Of a DNA stretch of 64,000 bases, positions 21 through 61,033 are shown piece by piece. Position numbers and translations under genes: made by a program. The notes under the pieces were generated by a model. That model ran no database searches. It had not been told where the DNA came from and saw only the letters and a program-made list of their open reading frames with translations. Where the stretch lies: the sequence record OK254198.1. One strand, given 5' to 3'. Positions within the stretch are counted from its first letter, which is position 1; every line of letters starts with the position of its first letter. The DNA is from Escherichia phage PSD2001.

Positions 21-68
21 AACTCAGTATGGGAACATTATACGTCTATCCCATACTGATGTACACTA
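21..68 (-). promoter_or_regulatory. PeSS-like early promoter cassette (-35 TGTACA, -10 TATAAT bracketed by 11-bp inverted repeat TCAGTATGGGA/TCCCATACTGA); drives a gene beyond the window start
   Basis: Read on minus strand: GTGTACA-17nt-TATAAT with perfect inverted repeat around -10; same module recurs >=13 times in window. Confidence 0.6.
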
Positions 69-71
69 CTT

Positions 72-102
72 TTTAAAATAAAAAAGGACCCCGAAAGGTC
101 CT
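72..102 (-). terminator. Intrinsic terminator (hairpin AGGACC-loop-GGTCCT followed by T-run on minus strand)
   Basis: GC stem 85-90/97-102, A-run on plus = U-run on minus, directly after stop of 109..1119. Confidence 0.7.
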
Positions 103-108
103 TAGAAT

Positions 109-1119
109 TTAACGATAATAGGAATTGTGGTTGTCAAGATATACCTCTTCAACAAACTTGTCCCAGAACTTCATGTCCACCTTCGCAGGCATACCATTCT
201 TAGCTGCCCAGATAGCATTAGTTTCGACTTCATCAACGATAGCTTCAAGTTCGGCCTGTACATCTTTAAAAGCATGAAGCCCTTGTTTGATTTCAAGGAT
301 AAATGGCGCTGTACGTAAAGGATATTGGAGGTCGCCAGTCATATAGATTTCCTTCAGCTGATATCCGGCTCGGTAAGCATGACTCAGGGCTTTCCAGTCA
401 ATACCTTCATTGGCTTCTGCCTTACGAGCACGTTCACCATATTCAGCATCAAGTTTATTCAGAGATTGCTTGAGCTCGATTAAAGACAGGGTAGTTTGGT
501 ACTTACGTCCAAGAACAGTATAGAACGTTTGAGGACCTGTTTTCTCGTGGTTATGGAATACCCATTCACAAAACTCGTTTTCAGGGAGTCTGTGTTTGAT
601 ATCTTCTACCTTAGTGCGACGTTGCTTAGTCGAACCGTCTTCTTGATAATCAACCCACTGTTCAGGAATCTGGTTAACGATTGCCAGTACACCACGTAGA
701 GCGGCCAGTCGAGAACCTTTAACACCATATTTGGAAGCTTGCTTACGGACATACCCCAAATAGGCTTTCATGTTAGTTGTATAGAACCGCGAACGGTTAT
801 CCTGAATAAACTTCCATACATCTGGTAAATCGGATTTGACAACCAGGTCAGCCGGTGTGTGAATCATGTCCAGGGCAACGGTTTCGCCATCGGCTGCCAG
901 TTTAAAGAAATATTTCAGGCTGTAAAGCTCATGGTCAACATCGTCTTTAGTGTTTTTAGAAGCAGTGTTATTCGTGTTCAGGTTGGTATGGTTCATCGCC
1001 GTCCCAAGTAGAATATCACGAGGATGTGGAACAAAGATTTCTTTAAAATCAACATCAGATTCCGGAGTACTTGTTCCATAAAGATGGCTACCGAAGTAGC
1101 CTTTCATAACTGTTCTCAT
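109..1119 (-). CDS. Predicted nucleotidyltransferase-fold protein (Pol-beta superfamily motif)
   Basis: 336 aa ORF; N-terminal 'GSHLYGTSTPESDVDF' fits hG[GS]x(9-13)DhD nucleotidyltransferase signature; family not resolved. Confidence 0.55.
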   Translation of the reverse strand: MRTVMKGYFGSHLYGTSTPESDVDFKEIFVPHPRDILLGTAMNHTNLNTNNTASKNTKDDVDHELYSLKYFFKLAADGETVALDMIHTPADLVVKSDLPDVWKFIQDNRSRFYTTNMKAYLGYVRKQASKYGVKGSRLAALRGVLAIVNQIPEQWVDYQEDGSTKQRRTKVEDIKHRLPENEFCEWVFHNHEKTGPQTFYTVLGRKYQTTLSLIELKQSLNKLDAEYGERARKAEANEGIDWKALSHAYRAGYQLKEIYMTGDLQYPLRTAPFILEIKQGLHAFKDVQAELEAIVDEVETNAIWAAKNGMPAKVDMKFWDKFVEEVYLDNHNSYYR

Positions 1120-1568
1120 TTCTTCGCCTCAAAATGGATTACCGGACACATCTTAGATTTACGAGCTTTAATGTATTGAATAACGATGTTTTCTTTAGTT
1201 TCCTTTCCTTCACGTTTGGCTAGAATACGTTGCCATTCCTTTTCTTCTTTACGTAAATCATACCATGCGTGTAAATTCATTGCACCTAATGCCAAACCAA
1301 TGGATAGCGCAATAATAAGAGCTATTGCAATCAACCCTAAAACAAACCCTAGACTCAACAGAACAGGAGTACTTAATACAAAGAAATGCTCTAATACACT
1401 AACCCCCGCGACAGTTAATCCAAAAACCGTACTACCTGCAACAACAGCACAAACAAAACAAGCCCAAACCATTTTCCAGAAGTAAGCACATAAAGAGTGT
1501 GGTCGAGAATTACGGTCATAAAAACGGTCGTGTAATTTAACGTGCCAAGAGTTTGCATTGATAATCAT
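1116..1568 (-). CDS. Hypothetical integral membrane protein
   Basis: 150 aa ORF with several long hydrophobic segments (e.g. VWACFVCAVVAGSTVFGLTVAGV, LGFVLGLIAIALIIALSIGLALGA); 4-nt start/stop overlap with upstream gene. Confidence 0.55.
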   Translation of the reverse strand: MIINANSWHVKLHDRFYDRNSRPHSLCAYFWKMVWACFVCAVVAGSTVFGLTVAGVSVLEHFFVLSTPVLLSLGFVLGLIAIALIIALSIGLALGAMNLHAWYDLRKEEKEWQRILAKREGKETKENIVIQYIKARKSKMCPVIHFEAKK

Positions 1569-2456: not shown

Positions 2457-2714
2457 TCATCTCATGCTCCTATGCCAACAGTTTCTTGGCTCACGTTTAA
2501 AAATTTCATCATGCATTGATTGACAACCAACACAATATATCACGCCTTTAATCGCTTGTCTCCGCGCTTCAGGAATTTTTTCGTCGCAGTCAAAACAGAA
2601 TTCAGCAGACTCCCTTTCAACTGCAACTTGCGCTCTCGCATGGGTGATAGTGGCTTGGACAACCGCTTCCATCTCTAACTGTTCAGCACCATCTTTTGCA
2701 AATCCAACAGCCAT
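2457..2714 (-). CDS. TraR/DksA-family C4 zinc-finger protein
   Basis: 85 aa; 'CFDCDEKIPEARRQAIKGVIYCVGCQ' = CxxC-x17-CxxC with EARR spacing typical of TraR/DksA zinc fingers. Confidence 0.6.
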   Translation of the reverse strand: MAVGFAKDGAEQLEMEAVVQATITHARAQVAVERESAEFCFDCDEKIPEARRQAIKGVIYCVGCQSMHDEIFKREPRNCWHRSMR

Positions 2715-3347: not shown

Positions 3348-3398
3348 TCCTCAGTAGTTGATGGGATAATAGTACACCCTTTTTATGGTGTTGTAAAC
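3348..3398 (-). promoter_or_regulatory. PeSS-like early promoter cassette (-35 GTTTACA, -10 TACTAT, TATCCCATCAACTACTGAGGAG arm)
   Basis: Minus-strand read GTTTACA-17nt-TACTAT-TATCCCATCAACTACTGAGGAG; shares the GATGGGATA/TATCCCATC module with other copies. Confidence 0.55.
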
Positions 3399-3440
3399 CC
3401 CTAAATGAAAAAAGGTCCACCCGAAGGCAGACCTTTTGAA

Positions 3441-5426: not shown

Positions 5427-5635
5427 AACCATTGCACCTTTAAACAATATTCATCTACGTGTTGGACACGTTTGTTTTTGTCAATAAAAGTATATTCAAC
5501 ATACTCGCCGATATACCACTTATCTACATTGTGAGGACTTTTTATAGGACACTTGGTTACCCGTGTTTCGGACCAGTGTCGAATAATTGTAGCTTTATTT
5601 TTAGGGTCAAACGGATGTGGGTAATGTGCTTTCAT
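5423..5635 (-). CDS. Hypothetical protein
   Basis: 70 aa ORF, overlaps neighbours by a few nt. Confidence 0.5.
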   Translation of the reverse strand: MKAHYPHPFDPKNKATIIRHWSETRVTKCPIKSPHNVDKWYIGEYVEYTFIDKNKRVQHVDEYCLKVQWL

Positions 5636-6086
5636 AATCCACCACTATCAAATCAATATCAGGAGTAAACATATCAATTAACCGGGAAACCTTATCCCAA
5701 TCACCACCTGCAATACCACATCCAATCCTGGGAATATAAATCACGGGCTTGAACAAAAGTGATTCTGCTTGTCGATTTAATTCTATCATGCAATTTACTA
5801 AAGCGCCATAATCCAGATTTGGACCCGGTTCATACTGTGTATAAAGGTTATAGCACATACCAAATCCAGTTGGCTTATGTTTAAAAACGATAGACATATC
5901 ACCGAGTTTTTCTCGGGAACCGTATTCAGTTGATGTCTTATCCATTTCTAAAATTTTTGGGTAAGCCTTTGCCAGTTGGCCAGCGACGCCTGAACCCATT
6001 GTGTGAAAGCAGTTGCAACCATGTGCAATAATATTGCCTTGAAGAAAGAGGGCGACGATATCGCCCTTAATATAGTTAACAATCAT
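5607..6086 (-). CDS. Macro-domain protein (putative ADP-ribose binding/processing)
   Basis: 159 aa; 'GDIVA...AHGCNCFHTMGSGVAGQLAKAYP' and 'IPRIGCGIAGGDW' match the two glycine-rich macro-domain motifs. Confidence 0.65.
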   Translation of the reverse strand: MIVNYIKGDIVALFLQGNIIAHGCNCFHTMGSGVAGQLAKAYPKILEMDKTSTEYGSREKLGDMSIVFKHKPTGFGMCYNLYTQYEPGPNLDYGALVNCMIELNRQAESLLFKPVIYIPRIGCGIAGGDWDKVSRLIDMFTPDIDLIVVDYESTLPTSV

Positions 6087-19739: not shown

Positions 19740-19815
19740 TGGTACCTCTAGAAGGACTCGAACCCTCACCTTTAACCTTAGAACGATTATATGCTATCCG
19801 TTACACTATAGAGGC
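19740..19815 (-). tRNA. tRNA-Arg (anticodon TCT), CCA encoded
   Basis: Manual fold: acceptor GCCTCTA/TAGAGGT (one G-U), D-arm, anticodon stem TAATC/GGTTA with loop GTTCTAA, T-arm GAGGG-TTCGAGT-CCTTC, then ACCA. Confidence 0.8.
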
Positions 19816-20466
19816 AATTAAATTATTTACAATATCATCTTTATAAACTTCGGCATAATGCAGTTCATAAATTTTCCAACCTGCGGCTTTTATGATATCA
19901 TGTCTTTCTTTATAATATGGGGCCAAAATCTTTTGTTTTGGATTGGAATAATGTTGATTTCCATTAACTTCAATAATTATTTTCTTATCTATTAAAGCAA
20001 TATCACAAGAATATGCTCGGTTTTCAACTGCCTGATATTCTTCGACAAATATAATACCAGCTTCAAGCAGTTTGGTTTTTAAAAATTCACACGGCACCGA
20101 TTTAAATTTAGTATTCTTTTTCCAAGGGTGTTTATCGGGATTTTCTTTTAACCATTTCTTTCTTCCATCAGAAATTCGTTTTATAGATTCGGGAGAGTGT
20201 TCTCTGCCTAGCGAAGCGACTGATAATTTTTCTCGAGTTTCCGCAGAAACGACAAACGGGACACCTGTCTTTTTAGCTACTACAAATTGATTTAAATTCC
20301 CAGATTCTATACGAGCTTTATTCATCGCAGCAACTGCAGTTTTAGAACCCTCTTTATAGGAATCTAACTTAGGGTTAGATGGACACCATCTTGTATGATT
20401 AGCCATCCAGCCTTTAGGCTTGTTAGAAGTATCAAATTCTTTATTACAATGTTTGCAGATGCTCAT
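19801..20466 (-). CDS. Putative homing endonuclease: N-terminal Zn-finger, NUMOD3-like motif, C-terminal Vsr-like (PD-(D/E)xK, DUF559-type) nuclease
   Basis: 221 aa; 'CKHCNKEF...HTRWC'; 'SAETREKLSVASLGREHSPESIKRIS'; C-term 'IIEVNGNQHY...ERHDIIKAAGWKIYEL'; lies between two tRNAs. Confidence 0.6.
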   Translation of the reverse strand: MSICKHCNKEFDTSNKPKGWMANHTRWCPSNPKLDSYKEGSKTAVAAMNKARIESGNLNQFVVAKKTGVPFVVSAETREKLSVASLGREHSPESIKRISDGRKKWLKENPDKHPWKKNTKFKSVPCEFLKTKLLEAGIIFVEEYQAVENRAYSCDIALIDKKIIIEVNGNQHYSNPKQKILAPYYKERHDIIKAAGWKIYELHYAEVYKDDIVNNLIASIV

Positions 20467-20492
20467 CAAAAATCTCCTATTAAGTATAGGAG

Positions 20493-20500
20493 TATTTATA
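20493..20500 (-). promoter_or_regulatory. Late-promoter TATAAATA upstream of the tRNA-region nuclease gene, followed by an SD-sequestering hairpin
   Basis: Minus strand TATAAATA-CTCCTATACTTAATAGGAG-ATTTTTG-ATG; SD AGGAG is in the 3' arm. Confidence 0.5.
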
Positions 20501-20527
20501 ATTGGACAGAGCACCATTCTAAAAATA

Positions 20528-20602
20528 TGACCCAGACCAGATTTGAACTGGTAACCTTTCCCTTATGAGGGGACTGCTGCTAACCAATTGAGCTACAGGG
20601 CC
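20528..20602 (-). tRNA. tRNA with anticodon CAT (Met or Ile2)
   Basis: Manual fold: acceptor GGCCCTG, anticodon loop CTCATAA, perfect T-arm ACCAG-TTCAAAT-CTGGT; one acceptor mismatch and a 3-bp D-stem. Confidence 0.7.
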
Positions 20603-60005: not shown

Positions 60006-60027
60006 GGGCCTTGCGGCCCTTTTTTTT
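60006..60027 (+). terminator. Intrinsic terminator after second gene 24
   Basis: GGGCCTTGCGGCCC hairpin + TTTTTTTT. Confidence 0.8.
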
Positions 60028-61033
60028 ATTCACTAACTAATGCAATCCAAACGTGTCTTAATGTTTCTCTTACATTTGCGATGAGTTGCTTTTTAACTTC
60101 AACAGGATTTTCCGCCAGGGTCAATTCAAGGCCTTCGCGCCCGGCTTCTTCCAGAATATCTTGAACTGTTAGCCCCATTACCTTTCCAAAATCCTTCGGT
60201 GTTACTTCCCCAATTTTACTGATAACATTGTTGATACGGTTAACAGTCACATAATCAGTGAAATTCCACAGTAAATCCATATCATTTTGGCTCAGAACCA
60301 CTGCAGCCTTAATAGGCTTATCAGACTTTTTCTTTTCACTGAATTTAGAGTTCTTACATTTAATCGCTACACGCTCGCCGTTAGGTAACCATGCAGGAAC
60401 ATCAGGTTTTAATACAAATCCTTCAGCAGTGAATACTTTACCTTCCACCTTTGCATCAAAATCAGTGGTATTTGCTGTAGTCAATCCTGCGTTATCCACT
60501 GTAAAATTGTAATCAGGGACCACAGAATCCAGGTCATTAGGTAGCTTAATTAATTCTTCAAAACTACCTGTAGCCAGGCGCGGGGCAACTTTAAACTTAT
60601 GAATAATACAAAAGGCTTCCATAAGTGTGTCAGTCAGGACGGATTCAGAGCCATCTTCCTTAGTAACGCGGATATCAAACACATAGAAATCTTTATCGCC
60701 GTAATTCACATTCTTCTGAATACCTGTACCAGCAAACTCACCATAAATCTGATATGCCTGATAATTAATATCCTGCAAAAGTTTCTGCACAGATTTAATA
60801 GAATCTGCATAGTTCTTTAATACAATTTCATAACCATAGAAATCTTCTGCAGGTAGGATAGGTCCAGTGCGTTTCGCACATGTCACATTGTCTTGTTCAA
60901 TGATTAATGAAAAGTTGGTACCATGAATCTTCTCGCGAGCTACCCATTCACCGCTGGTGAAGCCTTGCAGGCGAATCTTTTCAATGAACTTGTTGTTATA
61001 GTGATTTTCAAGGCTGTTGTATTTCTTAAACAT
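60026..61033 (-). CDS. rnlB: RNA ligase 2
   Basis: 335 aa; '[19 protein letters not shown]...[12 protein letters not shown]' incl. ligase motif I K-x-H-G. Confidence 0.95.

Follow-up and report, generated by a model that had tools for sequence, protein, structure and literature searches.

Introduction

Nucleotidyltransferases of the RlaP family (PF10127, 'RNA repair pathway DNA polymerase beta family') have been assayed from Pseudomonas fluorescens and P. aeruginosa. The two enzymes (PfRlaP and PaRlaP) add one or two nucleoside monophosphates (NMPs) or deoxynucleoside monophosphates (dNMPs) to the 3'-OH of RNA, prefer Mn2+, and label neither DNA nor E. coli proteins (Carruthers, Fatma, Huang; bioRxiv 10.64898/2025.12.29.696909). 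In the same study PfRlaP, when offered a cleaved-tRNA mimic, prefers its 5' half to the acceptor end on the 3' half, RlaP treatment partly rescues aminoacylation of a tRNA without one anticodon-loop nucleotide, and the phage T4 protein NrdC.11 ('T4NrdC.11') is placed in cluster 5 of the PF10127 sequence similarity network, with its function given as unknown. Here we analyse a 336-residue counterpart of this protein encoded within a 64,000-nucleotide stretch of Escherichia phage PSD2001 (OK254198.1), the whole of which is called the window below.

The gene nrdC.11 is already known, RlaP activity has been reported and a role in phage has been predicted in print. Its orthologues were placed among the COG3541 nucleotidyltransferases in 2006 (PMC1524935). 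RlaP has since been described as the most prevalent repair nucleotidyltransferase of jumbo phages, with a distribution that tracks RNA ligases, and phage RlaP was predicted to restore nucleotides lost by RloC-type trimming ahead of ligation (Iyer et al., PMC7824862). RloC's removal of the wobble nucleotide had itself been proposed in 2008 to defeat repair by T4 Pnk/Rnl1 (PMC2610378). The nrdC.11-mobD.3 block is lost in a viable genome-reduced T4 (PMC9825161) and nrdC.11 is therefore dispensable on laboratory hosts, which fits an accessory, host-dependent function.

Family assignment and catalytic residues

The coding sequence occupies 109..1119 on the minus strand, stop included, running from an ATG to a TAA at 111..109. 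Its 336-residue product aligns with T4 NrdC.11 (AF158101.6, 55438-56445) at 82.4% identity over 100% of its length by tblastn. Near-identical copies (97-99%) exist in public phage genomes, and tblastn detects homologues in 1712 phage records, among them T4-like phages of many hosts, jumbo phages, Bacillus phages and mycobacteriophages. The Pfam profile PF10127 scores 41.6 bits against a gathering score of 23 (E 1.5e-10), and the PHROGs family phrog_388, 'nucleotidyltransferase', matches over the full length (E 3.7e-132). We have very little doubt that the protein is NrdC.11, a PF10127-type nucleotidyltransferase. Residues 9-25, FGSHLYGTSTPESDVDF, fit the Pol-beta pattern hG[GS]-x(9-13)-Dh[DE]h exactly, the motif proper, GSHLYGTSTPESDVDF, being encoded at 1045..1092 on the minus strand (residues 10-25). 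The pattern occurs just twice in the six-frame translation (~128,000 residues). Taken alone the motif would be suggestive of a nucleotidyltransferase; the real support for that identity comes from the PF10127 match and the full-length phrog_388 match.

A first-pass annotation made from the DNA letters alone had placed a 336-residue protein with a GS...DxD motif near its N-terminus at 109-1119, with no strand stated, and had called it a Pol-beta-type nucleotidyltransferase of undecided subfamily. Both statements hold, the strand being minus. Among the families that it named for profile comparison, PF10127, the first listed, passes its cut-off, MntA fails (13.4 against 60 bits) and no CD-NTase family matches. 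NCBIfam gives no match above its cut-offs. In the PDB, phmmer finds no sequence match at E<=10, and a search with a 66-sequence profile returned one spurious match only (0.2). The search of 1.84 billion cluster representatives with HMMER yielded 3042 related clusters at 50% identity, of which 771 reach E<=1e-30. The best 150 of these homologue clusters align end to end at 35-55% identity, and the whole 336-residue architecture is therefore a conserved unit.

Conservation was assessed in an alignment of 66 homologues with 34-83% identity to the query and in a second alignment of 13 sequences. Twelve positions are invariant among the 66 homologues (G10, S11, S21, D22, D24, Y131, K243, H247, R250, P267, K278 and G280), while conservation reaches at least 90% at D60, D62 and D84; in the 13-sequence alignment G10, S11, S21, D22, D24, D60, D62 and D84 are all invariant. 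On the evidence of these alignments D62 is the likely third carboxylate of the nucleotidyltransferase core, so that homologues conserve both the Pol-beta catalytic signature and the residue that would complete it. The first-pass annotation had named loss of the catalytic aspartates in homologues as the outcome that would speak against its assignment; D22 and D24 are present in every one of the 66. A reading of NrdC.11 as a pseudoenzyme was rejected, every catalytic residue being conserved.

Two other database labels deserve comment. Many GenBank and UniRef records call the protein a 'thioredoxin'. This was rejected, given that no thioredoxin family matches at E<=1 in Pfam or NCBIfam and that the structural model has a nucleotidyltransferase fold; the label was apparently carried over because of the gene name nrdC.11. 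One record calls it an 'HNH homing endonuclease', for which there is no support from Pfam, NCBIfam or the fold.

Domain architecture and relation to canonical RlaPs

An AlphaFold2 model built from the 66-sequence alignment is confident, with a mean predicted local distance difference test score (pLDDT) of 93.6 and a predicted template modelling score (pTM) of 0.78. Read together with the alignments, it divides the protein into four parts. The N-terminal alpha/beta nucleotidyltransferase core (residues ~1-98; 826..1119, minus strand) carries G10-S11, D22-x-D24, D60, D62 and D84 and is followed by basic linker helices (residues 99-150; isoelectric point 10.5). Next comes a beta-rich insert (residues ~151-211; 487..669, minus strand), modelled with strands at 154-158, 164-168, 184-191, 195-202 and 205-208. 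The C-terminal helical domain (residues 212-336, or 213-335 in the model; 112..486, minus strand) bears the invariant K243-x3-H247-x2-R250, P267, K278 and G280. The long helical C-terminal region of the first-pass annotation is thus borne out as regards its helical segments, but the region is not purely helical, being interrupted by the beta-rich stretch at ~154-208. In the 13-sequence alignment the insert varies in sequence and length and contains many gaps, and it is missing from canonical RlaPs of 250-270 residues (269 in one example).

A 338-residue homologue from Deferribacter can be aligned to query residues 10-280 (E 4e-15), with GIDWKALSHAYR against GYDTKFSMHYHR at the K-x3-H-x2-R motif, and itself matches positions 2-246 of the 249 positions of PF10127. 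A home-built hidden Markov model (HMM) of canonical RlaPs places K243-x3-H247-x2-R250 on their KsylYalR and D62 on their conserved Asp, in an alignment that is statistically insignificant. Homology of NrdC.11 to canonical RlaPs over the full length is probable from these comparisons, and NrdC.11 would then represent a divergent 'long' RlaP that has gained an insert of ~60 residues.

Bacterial relatives and RNA-repair operons

A scan of 185,579 species genomes with the 13-sequence alignment as query identified full-length homologues at 80 loci (33-51% identity, E down to 1e-103), from Desulfobacterota, Nitrospirota, Alphaproteobacteria, Bacteroidota, Planctomycetota and some archaeal metagenome-assembled genomes (MAGs). 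Their flanks were analysed by tblastn with marker proteins, by clustering of open reading frames (ORFs) and by Pfam searches on cluster representatives. The closest plasmid homologue, on Asticcacaulis plasmid pASDW145_1 (37% identity, E 5e-56), lies in an operon of the order Hen1, Pnkp, NrdC.11-like nucleotidyltransferase and a second nucleotidyltransferase. The latter is a textbook RlaP that matches positions 4-235 of 249 in PF10127 at 236.5 bits. In Deferribacter the homologue lies 2.6 kb downstream of RtcB. Overall, a repair marker (Pnkp/Pnk, Hen1, RtcB, ATP-dependent RNA ligase or Rsr/Ro60, the last recognised as TROVE plus vWA) is present in the flanks of 18 of the 80 loci, within 3 kb in 14 of the 18; where at least 5 kb is available on both sides the count is 11 of 45. 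Such genes being rare, we read their presence near long RlaPs as an apparently strong enrichment, judged from these counts. The first-pass annotation had offered RNA repair or tailing as one possible activity, and this agrees both with the bacterial repair-operon context and with RlaP biochemistry (bioRxiv 10.64898/2025.12.29.696909).

Where enough downstream sequence is available, a canonical RlaP directly follows the long one on the same strand in 21 of 72 loci, which suggests a heterodimer or a division of labour. The spacing between the long and the canonical gene (250-270 residues) is 24-105 nucleotides (L002, 7001..8790; other examples are L073, L059 and L067), and the cassette is found with or without neighbouring Pnkp/Hen1 or RtcB. 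Apart from canonical RlaP and the repair genes, ORF clustering across the 80 loci revealed no neighbour that is widely shared; clusters of histidine kinases, ABC ATPases and helicases, at 5-8 loci each, look incidental or phage-derived.

Six loci (L019, L043, L047, L057, L062 and L072) have a Ro60/Rsr-like gene (TROVE plus vWA_Ro60) upstream of the NrdC.11-like gene, directly so in four and ~2-3 kb away in L043 and L072, often with RtcB alongside. These neighbours tie the NrdC.11 clade to RNA quality control of the Ro/Y-RNA type. On a 4 kb contig of a Bathyarchaeota MAG (L006), the genes directly after the NrdC.11-like one encode a T4-type Pnk, 37% identical to PseT, and an Rnl1-like ligase. 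The compact heal-fill-seal cassette so formed may stem from a viral contig binned into an archaeal MAG. The small new details provided here are the long subtype with its insert, and its tandem arrangement with canonical RlaP beside Pnkp/Hen1, RtcB and Ro60 in bacteria.

Phage neighbourhood

The first 3 kb of the window share 95% DNA identity with Escherichia phage CJ20 and Shigella phage SP18 (Straboviridae, Tevenvirinae, Gaprivervirus) and are matched in 608 phage records. The SP18 counterpart is annotated nrdC.11, 'nucleotidyltransferase', and stands between nrdC.x ORFs and the mobD.x/tk block, the gene order in SP18 and CJ20 being nrdC.11, mobD.1, mobD.3 and tk. In the window the neighbours of nrdC.11 are a membrane-protein ORF, MobD.1 (y05I-like) and a TraR-like zinc finger. 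The membrane-protein ORF, immediately upstream at 1116..1568 (minus strand), encodes 150 hydrophobic residues, is labelled 'membrane protein' in RefSeq SP18 and has a weak Oleosin-like match. Its TGA overlaps the ATG of nrdC.11 (ATGA, 1119..1116), and because of this overlap the two genes are probably co-transcribed and translationally coupled. At this position T4 has the HNH homing endonuclease gene mobD, between nrdC.11 and mobD.1. The TraR-like ORF, at 2457..2714, matches zf-dskA_traR (E 5.8e-9). The placement of nrdC.11 downstream of a membrane protein and a TraR-like gene, as first annotated, is therefore correct.

A T4 RNA ligase 2 homologue, rnlB, is encoded at 60026..61033 on the minus strand (Pfam RNA_ligase, E 3.1e-20; T4_Rnl2_C, E 1.2e-17) and is a candidate sealing partner of NrdC.11. 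Both pseT and rnlA are present in SP18, the closest RefSeq genome. The phage lineage thus holds the full T4 healing and sealing set, unlinked to nrdC.11. No canonical RlaP was found in the 64-kb window.

The remaining content of the window is typical of T4-like phages and includes tk, the rI antiholin, the Macro-domain protein Tk.4, two tRNAs, baseplate and head genes, and rnlB. Rfam models applied to the whole window recovered the two tRNAs and nothing else. These tRNA genes (Arg-TCT and Met-CAT, within 19740..20602) flank a 238-residue ORF at 19801..20517 (minus strand), the C-terminal domain of which is RAP/DUF559 (Vsr-like endonuclease); the ORF may encode a homing endonuclease at the position of segB in T4. 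T4 carries eight tRNA genes. The Tk.4 homologue at 5607..6086 (minus strand) contains a Macro domain (E 1.5e-8) and is labelled 'phosphatase' in SP18; Macro domains act on ADP-ribose and 1''-phosphate products, and a connection between them and the by-products of RNA repair has been discussed (PMC7824862).

Expression signals

A Shine-Dalgarno-like GAGG, read from the sequence at 1127..1130 (minus strand), precedes the ATG of nrdC.11 with a 7-nucleotide spacer. Homologues share the M1 start position in the 13-sequence alignment; some database records start at M5, giving 332 residues. On the far side of the gene, a terminator scan picked out an intrinsic-terminator-like hairpin (AAGGACC-TTTCGG-GGTCCTT) with a T-run at 74..103 (minus strand) that ends the transcription unit. 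The hairpin, 103..84 on the minus strand, begins 6 nucleotides past the stop codon and combines an 8-bp stem (4 G-C pairs) with a 4-nucleotide loop, followed by TTTTTATTTTA. The first-pass annotation had described a strong terminator here. The hairpin, the T-run and their position bear this out and the shape is canonical, but the folding z-score is only -1.96 in a 66-nucleotide context and 'strong' is somewhat generous.

Within the coding region, the terminator scan also identified a perfect 6-bp hairpin with a TTCG loop (GGCTAC-TTCG-GTAGCC, 1086..1101, minus strand) 18 nucleotides past the start codon. It spans the G-Y-F-G-S codons and has no T-run, and it may be a coincidence or may affect translation initiation. 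Further upstream, a 12-bp terminator-like hairpin at 3437..3410 (minus strand) is immediately followed by a promoter-like site at 3397..3369. Together with the terminator at 103..84 the two elements, consensus matches only, would frame a unit of ~3.3 kb and eight genes in which nrdC.11 is last. A second promoter-like site, likewise a consensus match only, lies past the nrdC.11 terminator at 65..37 (minus strand).

Discussion

By analogy with the Pseudomonas enzymes, the 3' ends of RNA are the probable targets of NMP addition by NrdC.11. A biological role in restoring nucleotides during anti-nuclease tRNA repair is a more tentative proposal, to which we would give somewhat less than even weight, yet it is the most likely of the roles considered. 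Under this model, D22, D24 and D62 would hold two metal ions, and one or two untemplated NMPs would be transferred from nucleoside triphosphates (NTPs) to the RNA 3'-OH. The substrates would be host or phage tRNAs cut and trimmed by a host ribonuclease such as RloC, which excises the wobble nucleotide. The phage Pnkp, PseT, would turn the 3'-phosphate or cyclic end into a 3'-OH, NrdC.11 would add back the one or two nucleotides lost, and Rnl1 or Rnl2 would then seal the 3'-OH/5'-P nick. RtcB requires a 3'-P end, which is incompatible with the RlaP product, whereas T4-type ligases take 3'-OH and 5'-P ends (bioRxiv 10.64898/2025.12.29.696909). This incompatibility is absent in T4, because the T4 ligases are ATP-dependent and use the 3'-OH that RlaP yields. 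RNA repair as a counter-defence of phages was first exemplified by the T4 Pnkp/Rnl1 pathway, and NrdC.11, conserved and catalytically intact by sequence in nearly all T4-like phages, is the obvious candidate for the missing repair step after RloC. The idea has already been published (PMC7824862; bioRxiv 10.64898/2025.12.29.696909), and the window adds an orthologue to it, not the concept.

Several points weigh against a role in tRNA repair modelled on the assayed RlaPs. The PF10127 match is limited to residues 8-134, equivalent to profile positions 25-142 of 249. Pfam searches with the fragments 132-336, 212-336 and 149-218 return no family, and hhalign against 18 canonical RlaPs aligned residues 2-91 only, with low probability. 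Because these C-terminal comparisons fail, the substrate-binding half appears strongly diverged from that of the assayed enzymes. In bacteria, 62 of the 80 loci have no repair marker in the flanks available, and the frequent pairing of long and canonical RlaPs means that the two could do different jobs. In the phage, no repair gene adjoins nrdC.11: rnlB is 59 kb distant and, in SP18, pseT and rnlA lie at ~88 kb. PfRlaP is also reported to add nucleotides without a template and with little NTP specificity, and such addition would put back the correct nucleotide in only a fraction of molecules.

Long RlaPs might also form a functionally distinct subfamily, in which the insert and the diverged C-terminal domain with K243-x3-H247-x2-R250 would be specific for one kind of damaged RNA, such as an anticodon loop without its wobble base, and would favour the right nucleotide. 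We consider this rather unlikely. If true, it would account for the frequent occurrence of a long next to a canonical RlaP in bacteria, and the long RlaP would be a dedicated counter of T4-like phages to RloC-type nucleotide-excising anticodon nucleases.

The other explanations that we weighed differ from nucleotide restoration at anticodon-loop breaks in the site, the substrate or the product of the reaction. NrdC.11 might instead repair or mature the acceptor (CCA) ends of host or phage tRNAs, adding back nucleotides where host defences have trimmed them or where the CCA was incomplete when the tRNA was made; tRNA genes are present in the window, and homologues of the N-terminal domain occur in mycobacteriophages and jumbo phages, which carry many tRNA genes. 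In vitro, moreover, full-length tRNAs and rRNAs receive 3'-end label from RlaPs, with little NTP specificity (bioRxiv 10.64898/2025.12.29.696909). We nevertheless regard action at CCA ends as unlikely, since with the cleaved-tRNA mimic PfRlaP favoured the 5' half over the acceptor end carried by the 3' half, the bacterial homologues cluster with Pnkp/Hen1, RtcB and Rnl and not with CCA-adding enzymes, and Pfam gives no match to the class II CCA-adding family.

The substrate might alternatively not be RNA, with NrdC.11 being an anti-defence or regulatory enzyme that AMPylates or NMPylates a host protein, in the manner of MntA on HEPN toxins, or modifies an antibiotic-like small molecule, in the manner of KNTase and LinB. 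A remote structural resemblance to MntA and KNTase is all that suggests this, and the evidence on the other side makes it quite improbable. The NCBIfam MntA match that falls below its cut-off extends over 18 residues only, MntA-type enzymes are small (100-140 residues, against 336 here), the R-x(4-6)-H motif was not found in the protein and no HEPN or toxin gene was found adjacent to nrdC.11. PfRlaP and PaRlaP left E. coli proteins and DNA unlabelled, and the NrdC.11 clade is linked to RNA-repair operons. That family context also speaks against the synthesis or capping of a nucleotide signal, as by Hailong HalB or CD-NTase-like enzymes, or a modification of host immune signals, which we consider very improbable. 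Identity is 11% only and confined to the generic nucleotidyltransferase core, Foldseek E-values are no better than 6e-3, and a Foldseek comparison of the model with the PDB gave no match below E 1e-3. PADLOC finds no defence-system model at E<=1, Pfam finds no CD-NTase/SMODS match, and no effector or sensor partner is conserved nearby. The features expected of Hailong HalB, close similarity and a HalA membrane effector as partner, were both absent.

Among known systems, kanamycin nucleotidyltransferase/ANT(4') and the nucleotidyltransferases of MNT-HEPN pairs share with NrdC.11 a minimal Pol-beta domain and a helical (HEPN-like) C-terminal bundle. In the bacterial tandem cassettes the first gene encodes a full-length NrdC.11 homologue with the same invariant residues, whereas their second gene, the canonical RlaP, has no counterpart found in the phage window. 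The Pseudomonas RlaPs (PF10127 cluster 1a) belong to the same Pfam family as NrdC.11 and have in common with it a Pol-beta core with three acidic residues and a helical C-terminal domain; their relatives, like those of NrdC.11, are linked to RtcB and other RNA ligases. The K-x3-[Y/H]-x2-R motif is shared between NrdC.11 and the bacterial canonical RlaPs compared here, a set that does not include PfRlaP and PaRlaP. NrdC.11 differs from the Pseudomonas enzymes in forming a separate sequence cluster (cluster 5), is ~60-70 residues longer than the canonical RlaPs compared because of its beta-rich insert, and stands alone in the phage genome, unlike RlaPs inside repair operons. The closest system is T4 NrdC.11 itself (AAD42-series, 'NrdC.11 conserved hypothetical protein'; 'nucleotidyltransferase' in RefSeq; phrog_388), an orthologue of the same length in the same place between nrdC.x and mobD.x/tk. 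The two loci differ in the neighbouring gene, which is the HNH endonuclease gene mobD in T4 and the 150-residue membrane-protein ORF here.

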